Below, in pieces: positions 4,959 through 55,654 of a stretch of 64,000 nt of DNA. The DNA lies in assembly GCA_951406725.2 (NCBI GenBank), contig OX597821.1, forward strand, positions 91,450,001 through 91,514,000, written 5' to 3'. The DNA is from Octopus vulgaris (Eukaryota). Within the stretch, counting starts at the first letter, position 1. Every line of letters begins with the position of its first letter. The notes below the pieces were generated by a model, which was not told where the DNA came from, ran no database searches, and saw only the letters and a program-made list of their open reading frames with translations. The position numbers and the translations under genes were made by a program.

Positions 4959-5448
4959 TCTAACAATATTAAAAGAACCAGAAAAGGTGGAGAAATAAAA
5001 TAAAAAAAAACTAAGACAAAAGACAAACACAAAAACAACAACGTAAGGCTTTTGGTAGACTGGCTGCTGGAAAGTAACAAGCACTCTTGATAAATATTGT
5101 GGTTTTCACAAATGGAAAGCAAACCGTTTCTGCCTGGCTTGCACGGTGCATGAATTACCTCACACCTCGCACAGCTCTCTGCACCTCACTACATCGCTCT
5201 GCCCCGCAGTGCTTGAAGGATTTATTGCAATCTGTCTTGAGAAAAATGTCCACTCTGGATGATCAATTTCTCAAATATGTTTGCTACAATACATTTATCA
5301 TTTTCACGCTCCGCCGGTCAACACCAGACACAGTGCTTTTATTGAAAAACGAGCCAAATATAAGTAAATAAATAACTAAATAACTAAATAACTAAATAAA
5401 AAAAATAAAAACTTTCCAGGAACGCTGCAAAGGAATAAATGGCAAATA

Positions 5449-18187: not shown

Positions 18188-18652
18188 TATTATTAGTGAA
18201 TTGAAGAAATGGAGTTGAACGAAGATTGAACAGAAATCGTTTTATTTCATTCTACACGCCCCATATAATACACCTAATATTCTTTAAATAGTCAGAACTT
18301 TACTCTCGGTCACAAAGAACATCTACGCACCCCGTGCCCTCACCCACCGGAATGACCGCTGCCTGACCCGTTAAAATCTTCAACGCACCCACCACCCGTT
18401 TTCAACATACACTGATAAACAGTTTGGCCATGGGCTCTTAGGAGCCTCGTTCGATTTGTTTTGCTCCGCCTCTGTTCTGTTTTTGTTTTTTCCAACGGAT
18501 TTCCTATTTCTTCCTGAAGAGAAAGACACAATATGGTCTCATTATTCAATCGGAATTTGGTAAATTGTGCCTTTCGAAACACGTGTAGAATGAAATAAAA
18601 CGATTTCTGTTCAATCTTCGTTCAACTCCATTTCTTCAATTCACTAATAATA
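18188..18652 (+). mobile_element. Non-autonomous Penelope-like element with a perfect 71-bp inverted repeat, ending in (TA)n
   Basis: 18188-18258 is the exact reverse complement of 18582-18652; the element contains a hammerhead motif. Confidence 0.75.
18505..18597 (+). ncRNA. Type I hammerhead ribozyme (minimal palindromic stem III)
   Basis: Stem I tatttc-ttc/gaa-t-gaaata; core CTGAAGA 18514-18520; stem II gaaagacacaat/attgtgcctttc; GAAA; stem III within the palindrome acacgtgt; GUA triplet 18585-18587. Confidence 0.85.
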
Positions 18653-23632: not shown

Positions 23633-23840
23633 ATGTGACCTCCTGTGTACTGTTGGCAATTTTTTTTTCCTCTGTTTTCCATTTTCTGGATCTTTCCTTC
23701 TCCTATGTTTCCGACGAAGAGCTCCGCTCGAAACGTTAAACCCTCCTTCTTTCCTTCTTTCCTGAGCGTCCAATAATACTATATTTGTTCCACGTCCTCG
23801 CGTTGTTGTGTTTTTTTGTGTTTTCTTGTTTGGATGAACT
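23633..23840 (+). mobile_element. ~205-bp short element with a minimal hammerhead-like motif, ending in (TA)n (copy 1)
   Basis: Starts atgtgacctc; gttt-CCGACGA-a-gagc-tcc-gctc-GAAACGTT-aaac at 23707-23741; copies at 33982 and 48359. Confidence 0.75.
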
Positions 23841-25078: not shown

Positions 25079-25105
<27 letters not shown>

Positions 25106-25111
<6 letters not shown>

Positions 25112-26487
25112 GTCCCGGGTTGATTCGGGGTTAACCACAGTAAGTAAGGTACTCAATACATAGCAGAGTAAAATTAATTTATTATATAGAAGGAGCTTCT
25201 ACAGGACTAGTACTGTTTCATTCAAGAGAAATCTTCAGGAAGCTATTTAACAAGAATTGTATTAGCATTTATACATTTAGGCAGGTTTAGTAATGTTCTT
25301 CAGGGAAGTGTCGAGGTCGATTCTTGTCAGCATTTTTCTTGGTGATGGTTATAAGGGCACTAGGGTGTGCTAGGATATGTAGGTCCCGGGTTGATTCGGG
25401 GTTAACCACAGTAAGTAAGGTACTCAATACATAGCAGAGTAAAATTAATTTATTATATAGAAGGAGCTTCTACAGGACTAGTACTGTTTCATTGAAGAGA
25501 AATCTTCAGGAAGCTATTTAACAAGAATTGTATTAGCATTTATACATTTAGGCAGGTTTAGTAATGTTCTTCAGGGAAGTGTCGAGGTCGATTCTTGTCA
25601 GCATTTTTCTTGGTGATGGTTATAAGGGCACTAGGGTGTGCTAGGATATGTAGGTCCCGGGTTGATTCGGGGTTAACCACAGTAAGTAAGGTACTCAATA
25701 CATAGCAGAGTAAAATTAATTTATTATATAGAAGGAGCTTCTACAGGACTAGTACTGTTTCATTCAAGAGAAATCTTCAGGAAGCTATTTAACAAGAATT
25801 GTATTAGCATTTATACATTTAGGCAGGTTTAGTAATGTTCTTCAGGGAAGTGTCGAGGTCGATTCTTGTCAGCATTTTTCTTGGTGATGGTTATAAGGGC
25901 ACTAGGGTGTGCTAGGATATGTAGGTCCCGGGTTGATTCGGGGTTAACCACAGTAAGTAAGGTACTCAATACATAGCAGAGTAAAATTAATTTATTATAT
26001 AGAAGGAGCTTCTACAGGACTAGTACTGTTTCATTCAAGAGAAATCTTCAGGAAGCTATTTAACAAGAATTGTATTAGCATTTATACATTTAGGCAGGTT
26101 TAGTAATGTTCTTCAGGGAAGTGTCGAGGTCGATTCTTGTCAGCATTTTTCTTGGTGATGGTTATAAGGGCACTAGGGTGTGCTAGGATATGTAGGTCCC
26201 GGGTTGATTCGGGGTTAACCACAGTAAGTAAGGTACTCAATACATAGCAGAGTAAAATTAATTTATTATATAGAAGGAGCTTCTACAGGACTAGTACTGT
26301 TTCATTCAAGAGAAATCTTCAGGAAGCTATTTAACAAGAATTGTATTAGCATTTATACATTTAGGCAGGTTTAGTAATGTTCTTCAGGGAAGTGTCGAGG
26401 TCGATTCTTGTCAGCATTTTTCTTGGTGATGGTTATAAGGGCACTAGGGTGTGCTAGGATATGTAGGTCCCGGGTTGATTCGGGGTT
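25106..26487 (-). repeat. 271-bp tandem repeat, left arm (5.1 units, hammerhead on the minus strand)
   Basis: aggtcccggg recurs at 25110, 25381, 25652, 25923, 26194 and 26465 (exact 271 spacing). Confidence 0.97.
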
Positions 26488-29400
26488 CTTACTTACTGTG
26501 GTTAACCCCGAATCAACCCAGGACCTACATATCCTAGCACACCCTAGTGCCCTTATAACCATCACCAAGAAAAATGCTGACAAGAATCGACCTCACACTT
26601 CCCTGAAGAACATTACTAAACCTGCCTAAATGTATAAATGCTAATACAATTCTTGTTAAATAACTTCTGAAGATTTCTCTTGAATGAAACAGTACTAGTC
26701 CTGTAGAAACTCCTTCTATATAATAAATTAATTTTACTCTGCTATGTATTGAGTACCTTACTGTGGTTAACCCCGAATCAACCCGGGACCTACATATCCT
26801 AGCACACCCTAGTGCCCTTATAACCATCACCAAGAAAAATGCTGACAAGAATCGACCTCATTACTCCCTGAAGAACATTACTAAACCTGCCTAAATGTAT
26901 AAATGCTAATACAATTCTTGTTAAATAGCTTCCTGAAGATTTCTCTTGAATGAAACAGTACTAGTCTGTAAACTCCTTCTATATAATAAATTAATTTTAC
27001 TCTGCTATGTATTGAGTACCTTACTTACTGTGGTTAACCCCAGATCAAAGGGACTAGCATATCCTAGCACACCCTAGTGCCCTATAACCATCACCAAAAA
27101 ATGCTGACAAGAATCCACCTCGACACTTCCCTGAAGAACATTACTAAACCTGCCTAAATGTATAAATGCTAATACAATTCTTGTTAAATAACTTCCTGAA
27201 GATTTCTCTTGAATGAAACAGTACTAGTCCTGTAAACTCCTTCTATATAATAAATTAATTTTACTCTGCAATGTATTGAGTACCTTACTTACTGTGGTTA
27301 ACCCGAATCAACCCGGGACCTACATATCCTAGCACACCCTAGTGCCCTTATAACCATCACCAAGAAAAATGCTGACAAGAATCACCTCACACTTCCCTGA
27401 AGAACATTACTAAACCTGCCTAAATGTATAAATGCTAATACAATTCTTGTTAAATAGCTTCCTGAAGATTTCTCTTGAATGAAACAGTACTAGTCCTGTA
27501 GAAGCTCCTTCTATATAATAAATTAATTTTACTCTGCTATGTATTGAGTACCTTACTTACTGTGGTTAACCCCGAATCAACCCGGGACCTACATATCCTA
27601 GCACACCCTAGTGCCCTTATAACCATCACCAAGAAAAATGCTGACAAGAATCCACCTCGACACTTCCCTGAAGAACATTACTAAACCTGCCTAAATGTAT
27701 AAATGCTAATACAATTCTTGTTAAATAGCTTCCTGAAGATTTCTCTTGAATGAAACAGTACTAGTCTGTAGAAGCTCCTTCTATATAATAAATTAACTTT
27801 ACTCTGCTATGTATTGAGTACCTTACTTACTGTGGTTAACCCCGAATCAACCCGGGACCTACATATCCTAGCACACCCTAGTGCCCTTATAACCATCACC
27901 AAGAAAAATGCTGACAAGAATCGACCTCGACACTTCCCTGAAGAACATTACTAAACCTGCCTAAATGTATAAATGCTAATACAATTCTTGTTAAATAGCT
28001 TCCTGAAGATTTCTCTTGAATGAAACAGTACTAGTCCTGTAGAAGCTCCTTCTATATAATAAATTAATTTTACTCTGCTATGTATTGAGTACCTTACTTA
28101 CTGTGGTTAACCCCGAATCAACCCGGGACCTACATATCCTAGCACACCCTAGTGCCCTTATAACCATCACCAAGAAAAATGCTGACAAGAATCGACCTCG
28201 ACACTTCCCTGAAGAACATTACTAAACCTGCCTAAATGTATAAATGCTAATACAATTCTTGTTAAATAGCTTCCTGAAGATTTCTCTTGAATGAAACAGT
28301 ACTAGTCCTGTAGAAGCTCCTTCTATATAATAAATTAATTTTACTCTGCTATGTATTGAGTACCTTACTTACTGTGGTTAACCCCGAATCAACCCGGGAC
28401 CTACATATCCTAGCACACCTAGTGCCCTTATAACCATCACCAAGAAAAATGCTGACAAGAATCGACCTCGACACTTCCCTGAAGAACATTACTAAACCTG
28501 CCTAAATGTATAAATGCTAATACAATTCTTGTTAAATAGCTTCCTGAAGATTTCTCTTGAATGAAACAGTACTAGTCCTGTAGAAGCTCCTTCTATATAA
28601 TAAATTAATTTTACTCTGCTATGTATTGAGTACCTTACTTACTGTGGTTAACCCCGAATCAACCCGGGACCTACATATCCTAGCACACCCTAGTGCCCTT
28701 ATAACCATCACCAAGAAAAATGCTGACAAGAATCGACCTCGACACTTCCCTGAAGAACATTACTAAACCTGCCTAAATGTATAAATGCTAATACAATTCT
28801 TGTTAAATAACTTCCTGAAGATTTCTCTTGAATGAAACAGTACTAGTCCTGTAGAAGCTCCTTACTTACTGTGGTTAACCCCGAATCAACCCGGGACCTA
28901 CATATCCTAGCACACCCTTGTGCCCTTATAACCATCACCAAGAAAAATGCTGACAAGAATCGACCTCGACACTTCCCTGAAGAACATTACTAAACCTGCC
29001 TAAATGTATAAATGCTAATACAATTCTTGTTAAATAGCTTCCTGAAGATTTCTCTTGAATGAAACAGTACTAGTCCTGTAGAAGCTCCTTCTATATAATA
29101 AATTAATTTTACTCTGCTATGTATTGAGTACCTTACTTACTGTGGTTAACCCCGAATCAACCCGGGACCTACATATCCTAGCACACCCTAGTGCCCTTAT
29201 AACCATCACCAAGAAAAATGCTGACAAGAATCGACCTCGACACTTCCCTGAAGAACATTACTAAACCTGCCTAAATGTATAAATGCTAATACAATTCTTG
29301 TTAAATAGCTTCCTGAAGATTTCTCTTGAATGAAACAGTACTAGTCCTGTAGAAGCTCCTTCTATATAATAAATTAATTTTACTCTGCAATGTATTGAGT

Positions 29401-32400
29401 ACCTTACTTACTGTGGTTAACCCCGAATCAACCCGGGACCTACATATCCTAGCACACCCTAGTGCCCTTATAACCATCACCAAGAAAAATGCTGACAAGA
29501 ATCGACCTCGACACTTCCCTGAAGAACATTACTAAACCTGCCTAAATGTATAAATGCTAATACAATTCTTGTTAAATAGCTTCCTGAAGATTTCTCTTGA
29601 ATGAAACAGTACTAGTCCTGTAGAAGCTCCTTCTATATAATAAATTAATTTTACTCTGCTATGTATTGAGTACCTTACTTACTGTGGTTAACCCCGAATC
29701 AACCCGGGACCTACATATCCTAGCACACCCTAGTGCCCTTATAACCATCACCAAGAAAAATGCTGACAAGAATCCACCTCGACACTTCCCTGAAGAACAT
29801 TACTAAACCTGCCTAAATGTATAAATGCTAATACAATTCTTGTTAAATAGCTTCCTGAAGATTTCTCTTGAATGAAACAGTACTAGTCCTGTAGAAGCTC
29901 CTTCTATATAATAAATTAACTTTACTCTGCTATGTATTGAGTACCTTACTTACTGTGGTTAACCCCGAATCAACCCGGGACCTACATATCCTAGCACACC
30001 CTAGTGCCCTTATAACCATCACCAAGAAAAATGCTGACAAGAATCGACCTCGACACTTCCCTGAAGAACATTACTAAACCTGCCTAAATGTATAAATGCT
30101 AATACAATTCTTGTTAAATAGCTTCCTGAAGATTTCTCTTGAATGAAACAGTACTAGTCCTGTAGAAGCTCCTTCTATATAATAAATTAATTTTACTCTG
30201 CTATGTATTGAGTACCTTACTTACTGTGGTTAACCCCGAATCAACCCGGGACCTACATATCCTAGCACACCCTAGTGCCCTTATAACCATCACCAAGAAA
30301 AATGCTGACAAGAATCCACCTCGACACTTCCCTGAAGAACATTACTAAACCTGCCTAAATGTATAAATGCTAATACAATTCTTGTTAAATAGCTTCCTGA
30401 AGATTTCTCTTGAATGAAACAGTACTAGTCCTGTAGAAGCTCCTTCTATATAATAAATTAACTTTACTCTGCTATGTATTGAGTACCTTACTTACTGTGG
30501 TTAACCCCGAATCAACCCGGGACCTACATATCCTAGCACACCCTAGTGCCCTTATAACCATCACCAAGAAAAATGCTGACAAGAATCGACCTCGACACTT
30601 CCCTGAAGAACATTACTAAACCTGCCTAAATGTATAAATGCTAATACAATTCTTGTTAAATAGCTTCCTGAAGATTTCTCTTGAATGAAACAGTACTAGT
30701 CCTGTAGAAGCTCCTTCTATATAATAAATTAATTTTACTCTGCTATGTATTGAGTACCTTACTTACTGTGGTTAACCCCGAATCAACCCGGGACCTACAT
30801 ATCCTAGCACACCCTAGTGCCCTTATAACCATCACCAAGAAAAATGCTGACAAGAATCGACCTCGACACTTCCCTGAAGAACATTACTAAACCTGCCTAA
30901 ATGTATAAATGCTAATACAATTCTTGTTAAATAGCTTCCTGAAGATTTCTCTTGAATGAAACAGTACTAGTCCTGTAGAAGCTCCTTCTATATAATAAAT
31001 TAATTTTACTCTGCTATGTATTGAGTACCTTACTTACTGTGGTTAACCCCGAATCAACCCGGGACCTACATATCCTAGCACACCCTAGTGCCCTTATAAC
31101 CATCACCAAGAAAAATGCTGACAAGAATCGACCTCGACACTTCCCTGAAGAACATTACTAAACCTGCCTAAATGTATAAATGCTAATACAATTCTTGTTA
31201 AATAGCTTCCTGAAGATTTCTCTTGAATGAAACAGTACTAGTCCTGTAGAAGCTCCTTCTATATAATAAATTAATTTTACTCTGCTATGTATTGAGTACC
31301 TTACTTACTGTGGTTAACCCCGAATCAACCCGGGACCTACATATCCTAGCACACCCTAGTGCCCTTATAACCATCACCAAGAAAATGCTGACAAGAATCG
31401 ACCTCGACACTTCCCTGAAGAACATTACTAAACCTGCCTAAATGTATAAATGCTAATACAATTCTTGTTAAATAGCTTCCTGAAGATTTCTCTTGAATGA
31501 AACAGTACTAGTCCTGTAGAAGCTCCTTACTTACTGTGGTTAACCCCGAATCAACCCGGGACCTACATATCCTAGCACACCCTTGTGCCCTTATAACCAT
31601 CACCAAGAAAAATGCTGACAAGAATCGACCTCGACACTTCCCTGAAGAACATTACTAAACCTGCCTAAATGTATAAATGCTAATACAATTCTTGTTAAAT
31701 AGCTTCCTGAAGATTTCTCTTGAATGAAACAGTACTAGTCCTGTAGAAGCTCCTTCTATATAATAAATTAATTTTACTCTGCTATGTATTGAGTACCTTA
31801 CTTACTGTGGTTAACCCCGAATCAACCCGGGACCTACATATCCTAGCACACCCTAGTGCCCTTATAACCATCACCAAGAAAAATGCTGACAAGAATCGAC
31901 CTCGACACTTCCCTGAAGAACATTACTAAACCTGCCTAAATGTATAAATGCTAATACAATTCTTGTTAAATAGCTTCCTGAAGATTTCTCTTGAATGAAA
32001 CAGTACTAGTCCTGTAGAAGCTCCTTCTATATAATAAATTAATTTTACTCTGCAATGTATTGAGTACCTTACTTACTGTGGTTAACCCCGAATCAACCCG
32101 GGACCTACATATCCTAGCACACCCTAGTGCCCTTATAACCATCACCAAGAAAAATGCTGACAAGAATCGACCTCGACACTTCCCTGAAGAACATTACTAA
32201 ACCTGCCTAAATGTATAAATGCTAATACAATTCTTGTTAAATAGCTTCCTGAAGATTTCTCTTGAATGAAACAGTACTAGTCCTGTAGAAGCTCCTTCTA
32301 TATAATAAATTAATTTTACTCTGCTATGTATTGAGTACCTTACTTACTGTGGTTAACCCCGAATCAACCCGGGACCTACATATCCTAGCACACCCTAGTG

Positions 32401-33388
32401 CCCTTATAACCATCACCAAGAAAAATGCTGACAAGAATCCACCTCGACACTTCCCTGAAGAACATTACTAAACCTGCCTAAATGTATAAATGCTAATACA
32501 ATTCTTGTTAAATAGCTTCCTGAAGATTTCTCTTGAATGAAACAGTACTAGTCCTGTAGAAGCTCCTTCTATATAATAAATTAACTTTACTCTGCTATGT
32601 ATTGAGTACCTTACTTACTGTGGTTAACCCCGAATCAACCCGGGACCTACATATCCTAGCACACCCTAGTGCCCTTATAACCATCACCAAGAAAAATGCT
32701 GACAAGAATCGACCTCGACACTTCCCTGAAGAACATTACTAAACCTGCCTAAATGTATAAATGCTAATACAATTCTTGTTAAATAGCTTCCTGAAGATTT
32801 CTCTTGAATGAAACAGTACTAGTCCTGTAGAAGCTCCTTCTATATAATAAATTAATTTTACTCTGCTATGTATTGAGTACCTTACTTACTGTGGTTAACC
32901 CCGAATCAACCCGGGACCTACATATCCTAGCACACCCTAGTGCCCTTATAACCATCACCAAGAAAAATGCTGACAAGAATCGACCTCGACACTTCCCTGA
33001 AGAACATTACTAAACCTGCCTAAATGTATAAATGCTAATACAATTCTTGTTAAATAGCTTCCTGAAGATTTCTCTTCAATGAAACAGTACTAGTCCTGTA
33101 GAAGCTCCTTCTATATAATAAATTAATTTTACTCTGCTATGTATTGAGTACCTTACTTACTGTGGTTAACCCCGAATCAACCCGGGACCTACATATCCTA
33201 GCACACCCTAGTGCCCTTATAACCATCACCAAGAAAAATGCTGACAAGAATCGACCTCGACACTTCCCTGAAGAACATTACTAAACCTGCCTAAATGTAT
33301 AAATGCTAATACAATTCTTGTTAAATAGCTTCCTGAAGATTTCTCTTGAATGAAACAGTACTAGTCCTGTAGAAGCTCCTTCTATATA

Positions 33389-33393
<5 letters not shown>
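26488..33393 (+). repeat. 271-bp tandem repeat, right arm (~26 units, hammerhead on the plus strand); retrozyme-like array
   Basis: Reverse complement of the left-arm unit, near-identical copies; two units carry a 45-bp deletion. Confidence 0.97.
27997..28047 (+). ncRNA. Type I hammerhead ribozyme (representative copy; one per 271-bp unit)
   Basis: Stem I AGCTTC/GAAGCT; core CTGAAGA 28003-28009; stem II t-TTC-tctt-GAA-t; GAA; stem III ACAG-tactagtc-CTGT; predicted cleavage after GUA (A28041). Confidence 0.85.
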
Positions 33394-33440
<47 letters not shown>

Positions 33441-33451
<11 letters not shown>

Positions 33452-33640
33452 TATAGAAGGAGCTACAGGACTAGAACTGTTTCATTCAAGAGAAATCTTC
33501 AGGAAGAGCTTCCTGAAGATTTCTCTTGAATGAAACAGTCCTAGTCCTGTAGAAGCTCCTTCTATATAATAAATTAATTTTACTCTGCTATGTATTGAGT
33601 ACCTTATTTACTGTGGTTAACCCCGAATCAACCCGGGACC

Positions 33641-33645
<5 letters not shown>
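33441..33645. mobile_element. Terminal module: inverted partial unit plus direct partial unit of the 271-bp repeat, between (TA)n tracts
   Basis: 33441-33506 is a minus-orientation hammerhead region and 33507-33645 is plus orientation ending gggacctacat(at)n; it carries private SNPs. Confidence 0.85.
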
Positions 33646-33678
<33 letters not shown>

Positions 33679-33981: not shown

Positions 33982-35077
<1,096 letters not shown>

Positions 35078-39011: not shown

Positions 39012-39800
39012 AAGGCGACGAGCTGACAGAAACGTAAGCACGCCGGGTGAAATGCTTGCCGGTATTTCGTCTGCCGTTACGTTCTGAGTTCAAATTCCGC
39101 CGAGGTCGACTTTGCCTTTCATCCTTTCGGGGTCGATTAAATAAATACCAGTTACGCACTGGGGTCGATATAATCGACTTAATCCGTTTGTCTGTCCTTG
39201 TTTGTCCTCTCTGTGTTTAGCCCCTTGTGAGTAATAAAGAAATAGGTATTTCCTCTGCCGCTACGTTCTGAGTTCAAATTCCGCCGAGGTCGACTTTGCC
39301 TTTCATCCTTTCGGGGGTCGATTAAATAAATACCAGTTACGCACTGGGGGCGATATAATCGACTTAATCCGTTTGTCTGTCCTTGTTTGTCCTCTATTTG
39401 TGTTTAGCCCCTTGTGAGTAGTGAAGAAATAAGTATTTCCTTTGCCGCTACGTTCTGAGTTCAAATTCCGCCGAGGGCGACTTTGCCTTTCATCCTTTCG
39501 GGGGTCGATTAAATAAATACCAGTTACGCACTGGGGGCGATATAATCGACTTAATCCGTTTGTCTGTCCTTGTTTGTCCTCTCTGTGTTTAGCCCCTTGT
39601 GAGTAATAAAGAAATAGGTATTTCCTCTGCCGCTACGTTCTGAGTTCAAATTCCGCCGAGGGCGACTTTGCCTTTTATCCTTTCGGGGTCGATTAAATAA
39701 GTGCCAGTTATCCACTAGGGTCGATATAATCGACTTAATCTGTTTATCTGTCCTTGTTCGTCCCCTCTGGGTGCAGCTCTTTGTGGGTAGTAAAGAAAAA
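39012..39800 (+). repeat. Tandem array of 4 SINE family B bodies (~185-bp period)
   Basis: tacgttctgagttcaaattccgccgagg...gccccttgtgagta repeated 4 times; only the first copy has the A-box head. Confidence 0.9.
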
Positions 39801-40689: not shown

Positions 40690-41019
40690 ATTTTTCCTCC
40701 TTTTCCACTGTCCAAAGAAGGATAACATCTGAAATGTTACTGCGCTTAATTCTTACCATTTCCCTAAGCAACAAACTTATATTATTGATGGTAAACTTAT
40801 TTCACCTATACATGATTGTGTATGTATGTATGTACGTATGTATGCATGTATGTATGTATGTATGTATGTACCAAGTTGTCAAAAGATTTTTCGTATTTCA
40901 AGCTTTAATTAAAAATTCAAAGAAACTAGATCCGAAAAGCCTTTAATCATCAAAATATAACTCATCATATTTTATTCTCTGATGCCAATAATGCAGAGGG
41001 GACAAACAATGCATAGTGG

Positions 41020-41867
41020 TGTTTCGTCTGTCATTACGTTCTGAGTTCAAATTCCGTTGAGGTCAACTTTGCCTTTCATCCTTTCGGGGGTCGATTAAAT
41101 AAGTGCCAGTTACGTGCTGGGGTCGATGTAATCGACTTAATCCCTTTGTCTGTCCTTGTTTGTCCCCTCTGTGTTTAGCCCCTTGTGGGTAATAAAGAAA
41201 TAGGTATTTCGTCTGCGAGCTGGCAGAATCGTTAGCACGCCGGACGGAATGCTTAGCGGTATTTCGTCTGTCTTCACATTCTGAGTTCAAATTCCGCCGA
41301 GGTCGACTTTGCCTTTCATCCTTTCGGGGGTCGATTAAATAAGTGCCAGTTACGTGCTGGGGTCGATGTAATCGACTTAATCCCTTTGTCTGTCCTTGTT
41401 TGTCCCCTCTGTGTTTAGCCCCTTGTGGGTAATAAAGAAATAGGTATTTCGTCTGCGAGCTGGCAGAATCGTTAGCACGCCGGACGGAATGCTTAGCGGT
41501 ATTTCGTCTGTCTTCACATTCTGAGTTCAAATTCCGCCGAGGTCGACTTTGCCTTTCATCCTTTCGGGGTCGATTAAATAAGTACCAGTTACGCACTGGG
41601 GTCGATATAATCGACTTAATCCGTTTGTCTGTCCTTGTTTGTCCTCTCTGTGTTTAGCCCCTTGTGGGTAGTACAGAAATAGGTATTTCGTCTGCCATTA
41701 CGTTCTGAGTTCAAATTCCGTTGAGGTCAACTTTGCCTTTCATCCTTTCGGGGGTCGATTAAATAAGTGCCAGTTACGTGCTGGGGTCGATGTAATCGAC
41801 TTAATCCCTTTGTCTGTCCTTGTTTGTCCATTCTATGCTTAGCCCCTTGTGGGCAATAAAGAAAGAA
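41020..41867 (+). repeat. Tandem array of 4 SINE family B bodies (periods 240, 240, ~184)
   Basis: ctgagttcaaattccg at 41041, 41281, 41521 and 41705; two units include the A-box head. Confidence 0.9.
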
Positions 41868-55206: not shown

Positions 55207-55654
55207 AGCTACTTACCACACAGCCACTAACATATATTTCTTATCAAGCTCACTTGCTAATCATGACATCAGTGTCTGTTCTGGCACAGTTTTGCAATAT
55301 ATTGCTGGGGAGGAGATGAGTAACTTCTATCTCTAGTGGTTGAGTGTCCACCATTGATGAGACCAAGAAAGGTTGAAATCACTGGATCTGGTAGTCTCAA
55401 CACTGGAGATTGCAGGAATTTGTCTCTCTGCTAGCGATATAAGCAAGAATTTATTTTGTACCAAAAGCCAGTATGACAGTTTCTCTCATGTTATCTACTA
55501 CAGTATAGCTTGTTCTAACAGAACATCCATGTTTAAATGGGAACAAATATTACCTCTCAGTGTTAATATTGCTTCTATTGTTAATATATATTTGTCACCA
55601 AGGACATGTGTGATGTATAGAAGAACCAAATATGTTGCCTTTTGCTATAGTAAA

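Follow-up and report, generated by a model that had tools for sequence, protein, structure and literature searches.

The near-palindromic hammerhead stem III of an octopus tandem array: a probable inheritance from a Hydra-clade Penelope-like element

Cleavage by hammerhead ribozymes acting as dimers through a palindromic helix III has already been published for Penelope-like elements (PLEs), as the preliminary description of the locus treated here had rightly stated (PMC4209133, PMC6765202). Namely, Cervera and de la Pena (2014) described palindromic helices III, dimers and low activity (PMC4209133), a 2019 review holds that a tandem layout may aid dimer formation (PMC6765202), and Lunse et al. 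and Forster et al. are cited among the work on dimer-acting hammerheads (PMC4209133, PMC6765202). In the portions of this literature at hand, the dimer-acting PLE hammerheads have a helix III of 1-2 bp with a loop of 2-4 nt or none, and because of these dimensions the monomer cannot form (PMC4209133). In Xenopus, 8 of 9 dimers failed to cleave (bioRxiv 10.64898/2026.07.22.740005), and the available passages of the published work call the function of hammerheads in PLEs unclear and without in vivo evidence (PMC4209133, PMC11167929). As for animal retrozymes, the evidence that they stem from Penelope elements consists of co-occurrence and trees (bioRxiv 10.64898/2026.07.22.740005), and copying of a circular template has been proposed for them (PMC7229834; bioRxiv 10.64898/2026.07.22.740005). 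Finally, two reverse-transcription start sites have been shown for a lizard element, Anolis Poseidon PAc, for which cleavage is dispensable for insertion in vitro (PMC11167929). In other words, the idea that Penelope hammerheads work as dimers is textbook knowledge and adds little on its own; what may matter is the setting in which it is met.

The window analysed here is a 64,000-nt stretch of Octopus vulgaris DNA (assembly GCA_951406725.2, contig OX597821.1, positions 91,450,001 to 91,514,000, forward strand), and plain coordinates refer to it. At 28025..28040 (+) the window reads ACAGTACTAGTCCTGT, which is self-complementary but for one T/C pair, so that the near-perfect 16-nt palindrome initially noticed is indeed there. 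It is also, as had been proposed, stem III of the repeat's hammerhead, since a full type I motif can be read from the sequence at 27997..28047 (+). In particular, stem I is formed by AGCTTC/GAAGCT (27997-28002/28042-28047), the core CTGAAGA lies at 28003-28009, stem II at 28011-28020 comprises just 3 bp and a basal U-U, a trait also of several published Hydra rows (PMC8557442), the GAAA box follows at 28022-28025, and the 16-mer supplies helix III with an 8-nt loop, while the hammerhead consensus predicts the cut after GUA, between 28041 and 28042. The CUGANGA box, the GAAA box, the NUH triplet and helices I-III are thus all present in the hammerhead of the 271-bp unit; an Rfam scan at gathering thresholds gave no match to the curated hammerhead model. 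Because the outer 4+4 nt of the 16-mer are the hammerhead's own obligatory helix III, only the 8-nt loop is informative about the palindrome. Among all loops whose ends are unpaired, 1.6% have a centre of three pairs and 4.7% one of exactly two pairs, and the homodimer energy of the 16-mer is equalled by 6.7% of 3,000 random loops. The palindrome is beyond chance only moderately, and the preliminary description, which counted in the 8 of 16 nt that belong to the obligatory stem, overstated it.

Where does this hammerhead come from? A genome search found the parts of the repeat unit at many loci, and the fetched loci carry a 5,193-nt unit in tandem. This unit has just one open reading frame (ORF), of about 712 residues with RWR, DKT and YRDD motifs, a CxCx5C linker and, at the C-terminus, a GIY-YIG-type segment with flanking CxxC/CxH and no CCHH, a set equal to the marks listed for the Hydra clade of PLEs (Craig et al. 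2021, PMC8557442), whose published alignment the ORF follows when compared by eye. Pfam returned only sub-threshold, unrelated matches for this ORF, with none to a reverse transcriptase, and a comparison with PDB sequences returned none. The element also shows a (TA)n target, tandem and inverted insertions and a tail at one end. The 271-nt unit of the array, taken from cut site to cut site (28042..28312, +), consists of nt 1-183 of the element joined to nt 5104-5193, at 99-100% identity, and this mapping makes it the element's two ends with the ORF deleted. Indeed, the start codon and first codons of the reverse transcriptase-endonuclease ORF can still be read at 28179..28224 (+), where they are cut off at the deletion junction 28223/28224. 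Judged from these letters, what had been called a satellite is a Hydra-clade PLE copied in tandem, with an internal deletion and two inverted arms. A Naiad element was considered as the parent and rejected, as Naiads carry an N-terminal endonuclease. A second Hydra-type family was also observed (L077-L081, L087, L089, L090), with many 727-codon open frames, 44% protein identity to the first and a hammerhead loop III of 1 nt, i.e. of the obligate-dimer type. A third type of hammerhead occurs at two loci (L077, L088); its helix III is ACGTACGT and its stem II is long.

As far as the available text of the Hydra-clade report goes (PMC8557442), the octopus element shares with that clade the C-terminal endonuclease, the RW[K/R] and DKT motifs and the CxCx5C linker, the (TA)n target with inverted and tandem insertions, the type I hammerhead near the 3' end with an extra T on either side of stem II, and the ACAG/CTGT helix III, which occurs there as ACAG-nn-CTGT in four published families. 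It differs in its unit of 5.2 kb versus less than 3 kb, in its hammerhead and protein start, which are unlike those of the listed Hydra-1_Obim, and in its 8-nt loop III versus 1-3 nt in all 26 listed rows (25 families). The octopus 16-mer consists of AC, the hexamers AGTACT and AGTCCT, and GT, a near-exact duplication of a hexamer, and a clean loss of one hexamer was seen at 3 of 7 short-loop loci checked. From these patterns we infer that the 8-nt loop arose when a hexamer AGTnCT was duplicated within the clade's usual ACAG-nn-CTGT. Such a duplication makes the self-complementary CTAG centre automatic, without selection, although selection may have retained the centre once it was there; it would keep dimer pairing and newly permit a marginal monomer hairpin.

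The loop can be followed across the whole family. Searched with a flanked stem III pattern, the genome yields 4,472 exact matches, i.e. there are at least 4,472 hammerhead copies, and their loop is TTCTAGTC in 2,440, the window's TACTAGTC in 1,884 and another one in 148. The commonest subfamily, with TTCTAGTC, breaks the outer loop pair and retains the 4-bp CTAG centre; the window-type loop, with a 6-bp centre, accounts for about 42% of copies. In a comparison of 154 copies, from loci chosen by earlier searches, the flanks of TTCTAGTC copies are more varied and those of TACTAGTC copies more uniform, which suggests that the latter are younger. No compensatory change appears in the 25 copies that vary at the fourth loop base or in the 47 that vary at the fifth. 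Compensatory loop variants had been hinted at by differences between contigs and were dropped, as the genome holds none in these 25 + 47 copies.

Does the ribozyme then act as a dimer? Folding was tested on a 361-nt stretch with two ribozymes, in which stem III pairs between units with a probability of 0.985-0.995 and within a unit with about 0.001. With the window loop, constrained folding places the double hammerhead 7.3-7.4 kcal/mol below two monomers, and with the loop of the commonest subfamily the double form is favoured by 5.0 kcal/mol; shuffled loops (n = 150) have a mean of +0.36, 4 of them reaching the gain of the window loop and 9 that of the commoner one. The active folds lie above the free ensemble, by 8.8 kcal/mol for the double form and 16.0 kcal/mol for two monomers, and stem II in the two-ribozyme fold has a probability below 0.1 and inner stem I one of 0.10. 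In folding, then, the palindromic helix III and loop are able to pair between two copies. Compared with the published dimer PLE hammerheads, with which the octopus ribozyme shares type I topology, a palindromic helix III and loop, a predicted double fold and a pseudo-LTR location (PMC4209133, PMC6765202), it has three Watson-Crick pairs and an 8-nt loop that can close as a monomer. The monomer stem III hairpin is worth +0.3 kcal/mol at 37 C and -1.0 at 20 C. It follows from the loop that the ribozyme is less bound to the dimer than those of the 25 published Hydra-clade families, and the double hammerhead is a plausible, not an obligate, mechanism for a tandem transcript. The expectation that neighbouring units pair stem III in trans is, in this sense, borne out by the folding, whereas the stronger notion that they must do so is not.

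One could argue from the same closable loop that the duplication enabled a monomer ribozyme, and that the palindrome came along as a by-product that plays no part in cleavage, serving solely as an annealing site at the DNA level. Namely, three Watson-Crick pairs and 8 nt can close where loops of 1-3 nt cannot, a short isolated context forms stem I at 0.44 and stem III at 0.37, the ribozymes of full-length copies are 5.2 kb apart, the larger subfamily has to make do with the 4-bp centre, and neither set of central-base variants contains a compensatory change. However, even the weaker loop still favours the double form by a margin that few shuffles reach, CTAG is retained in the sampled subfamilies, the most uniform of them having the longer 6-bp centre (which counts as a single event), and in a longer context the monomer fold falls below 0.03. 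Weighing both sides, we regard the by-product explanation as rather improbable. Our preferred reading, which we call probable, is that the 16-mer forms helix III and its loop in a predicted hammerhead inherited from the Hydra-clade element, and that neighbours on an array transcript likely pair and cut as a double hammerhead.

The array itself is made of two inverted arms. The right arm (26488..33393, +) holds 26 hammerheads and includes two 227-bp units, and the left, inverted arm (25104..26487, -) holds 5, which gives 31 hammerhead stems in total, one per 271-bp unit. The right arm terminates about 22 nt and the left about 96 nt past its last cut site, each at (TA)n. In the (TA)n at the end of the array there is a separate short inverted insertion of the same family (approximately 33442..33646), with loops unlike those of the array. 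The first four units adjoining the inversion point (26488-27500) contain many small indels, possibly errors of sequencing or polishing at a long palindrome. Folding also predicts that the ORF start (about 28179-28192) pairs with 28250-28270, just upstream of the ribozyme; in the full element, such pairing would bring the 5' and 3' ends together near the junctions of the three arrays described below.

Two further arrays were found in the genome. A pattern of two ribozymes 256-286 bp apart gave 39 matches and one of 306-336 bp gave 25, and together these comprise three arrays plus seven isolated matches at six loci. The isolated matches are a dimer of a single unit, an insertion of three copies whose units measure 154/157 bp, and nested insertions. 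The arrays have units of 271 bp (the window), 277 bp (C2) and 333 bp (C5), with 31, 14 and 23 ribozymes, respectively, and each has its own deletion junction, identical in both of its arms. In all three, two inverted multimeric arms run on beyond the last cut site for about 22 and 96 nt, and the dispersed copies (n = 185) stop at the same two places, with the nearer cluster being inflated by subfamily indels. Two insertion ends, arising from two reverse-transcription starts downstream of the ribozyme and seen as a tail, are also a property of PAc, as are the AT-rich target and the predominance of uncut templates (PMC11167929). The 3-copy insertion (L215, G000:C7:106788000-106790000) has three tandem ribozymes whose junctions differ by 3 nt, which suggests repeated imprecise template jumps and not a circle.

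These observations fit a sequence of events in which a deleted copy with two ribozymes would have released a 271-nt monomer, the monomer would have been closed into a circle, around which the element's reverse transcriptase would have copied from both target ends, and unequal exchange would later have lengthened the right arm. The last step is indicated by the variants, which in the right arm recur at intervals of 8-10 units and thereby point to later amplification at the DNA level, and the preceding one by the two inverted arms, since, with both being multimeric and sharing the same junction, a circular or multimeric RNA template is easier to imagine than two expansions. That said, one private variant that breaks stem II is shared by the second-last ribozyme of both arms (33056-33106, +; 25465-25515, -), and a monomer circle leaves it unexplained. 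What is more, a two-ribozyme precursor with the 271-bp junction was not found elsewhere among the genome matches listed, and most insertions read through the ribozyme, from which it follows that most templates are uncut or re-ligated.

The competing possibility is that the array grew solely by DNA-level amplification of a short deleted insertion, with no RNA circle and with the ribozymes as passengers. The periodicity of the variants, which in the C5 array recur every 7 units, is typical of unequal exchange, and suitable starting points exist, as single-unit copies with two ribozymes measure 247, 332, 547 and 925 bp. A weak point on the same side is that no contig bridging the array junction appeared among the matches listed for eight runs (four guessed to be RNA, four DNA or unlabelled), whose contigs are blind to ends, strand and circles. 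Against amplification alone stand the multimeric state and common junction of both inverted arms in 3 of 3 arrays, and the fact that both outer ends coincide with the element's two normal 3' ends. For these reasons we think it unlikely that amplification did everything, and we retain the copying of a circular or multimeric RNA, followed by unequal exchange, as the working model.

How far does the array resemble a retrozyme? In the available text on metazoan non-LTR retrozymes, these are tandem units of 170-400 nt with a GC content below 45% (PMC7229834; bioRxiv 10.64898/2026.07.22.740005), each with one type I hammerhead, no intact ORF and kinship to the PLE pseudo-LTR (PMC7229834). The octopus unit shares all of this, being tandem, non-coding, 271 nt long, 37.6% GC and provided with its own type I hammerhead. 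Unlike the retrozymes described there, it matches, at 99-100% identity, the ends of a family in which ORFs are still open, and it keeps the first codons of the ORF (PMC7229834). Moreover, in genome searches each of the three array junctions occurs at one locus only, the 271-bp search giving a lower bound, which means that the unit is not yet a spreading family. As known here from the genomic letters, the array matches the retrozyme description in anatomy and not in dispersal.

The same census bears on the suggestion, made when the palindrome was first noticed, that it could explain selection for tandem arrangement, which we read as the palindrome being maintained because tandem units need it. 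All three arrays do carry the stronger loop with the 6-bp centre, although that loop is present in less than half of the copies, and of the single-unit dimers sampled, the three with the weaker loop (247-547 bp) stayed unexpanded. However, the chance of three out of three is near 0.07 and is confounded with subfamily age, and the unit lengths covered are 256-286 and 306-336 bp. Only some 68 of the at least 4,472 hammerhead copies (about 1.5%) lie in arrays, and among the first 100 window-type copies listed there is one same-strand pair less than 1 kb apart, which consists of two nested insertions. Add to this that the palindrome has been inherited unchanged from the autonomous element, that the larger subfamily has the weaker palindrome and that no compensatory variant is seen, and the suggestion loses its footing; we hold selection for tandem arrangement to be very improbable. 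The palindrome is an inherited precondition of the array and was not selected for by it.

A different kind of evidence comes from short inverted insertions. A pattern for inverted arms whose junction lies no more than 30 nt from the cut site matched 83 loci, of which the first 50 listed were examined. In 12 of the 50 (G000 loci L173, L175, L180, L182, L185, L189, L199, L203, L205, L207, L212 and L213), an arm ends 0-2 nt from the predicted cut, and in seven both arms do so, a count that has no downstream control, given that the pattern is blind to arms ending at +2 to +11 and that element positions +1 to +11 are themselves a small hairpin. Two loci with false stops from point variants and four with microhomology that blurs the ends were set aside. 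Once three variant loci are excluded, 13 loci combine filler bases with unambiguous ends; of their 26 arms, 16 end 0-2 nt from the cut, 8 of these at exactly 0, and none ends at 3-6 nt. Stops of this kind fit a cut RNA as the template and may be a record of cutting inside the cell. For PAc, the available text reports no RNA-seq reads ending at the cut site (PMC11167929), while here some genomic insertion arms stop there. At one locus (L203, G000:C8:5403302-5403652), both arms stop at the cut and then continue into the same foreign stretch of at least 14 nt, which is absent from the other fetched loci; ligation of another RNA to the cut end, or a fold-back, may account for it.

The palindrome leaves a mark of its own, in that 9 of the 50 insertions join in register at it, with an 18-nt spacer (P about 3e-5 if lengths are uniform, and 2e-4 for 9 of 19 among spacers of 15-22). 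A further 8 of 50 have a 29-nt spacer, mostly at another self-complementary spot, which makes joining at the palindrome a general microhomology effect. Such joining destroys the ribozyme, and it may also arise after insertion. In the open-access literature we found no account of arms joined at a palindrome, nor any of insertions that end at the cut site, and among the papers listed for octopus and hammerhead the Hydra paper alone was relevant by its title. Taken together, it is conceivable, and we propose it tentatively as falling somewhat short of probable, that the insertions stopping at GUA are copies of cut RNA, that each of the three arrays arose independently as a deletion circle of one active element, helped by the stronger palindrome, and that the palindrome was reused at the DNA level to anneal the two cDNA arms of inverted insertions. 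If true, the genome would record both a Penelope ribozyme working in vivo and the birth of retrozymes. In any case, the parent occurs beside single-unit deletions and arrays at 99-100% identity, the loop is present in two natural alleles and a collapsed form, and the whole makes up a ready-made set for testing monomer versus dimer cleavage and the start of a retrozyme.

Other limits of the copies were also noted. In a sample of one subfamily, biased by the search patterns, 15 of 48 window-type copies (L021-L163) lose element identity at the 5' edge of stem I (-44/-45), and the single-unit dimers L033, L035, L039 and L084 also restart at or near this edge; AGCT microhomology or a pause site may be responsible. 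Classes of tail length were excluded, as subfamily indels stop the match early.

The preliminary description extended the palindromic feature to other motifs of the window (acacgtgt, aacgtt and acagctgt), which turn out to be a mixed set. Namely, acacgtgt at 18579 belongs to a solitary hammerhead-like motif (18506..18596, +; core 18514, long stem II, GAAACACGTGTA) unrelated to the array, and aacgtt lies in a minimal-hammerhead-like dispersed repeat at 3 of 6 GAAACGTT sites. This repeat (23707..23743, +), of which there are further cores at 34058 and 48434, has a CCGACGA core and an ACGT helix III. Upstream of the two GAAACAGCTGT sites there is no intact core. All of these motifs are solitary and none stands in a tandem array. 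Cores with C replacing U4 (CCGACGA or CCGATGA) occur in more than one repeat family, at 23711, 34058 and 48434 and in L084 and L087. One more solitary hammerhead-like motif, with a UUGAUGA core, lies at 55350-55392 (+). Finally, tandem repeats of 185-240 bp are found at 39061-39798 and 41008-41864, and these seem to resemble a tRNA-derived octopus SINE.
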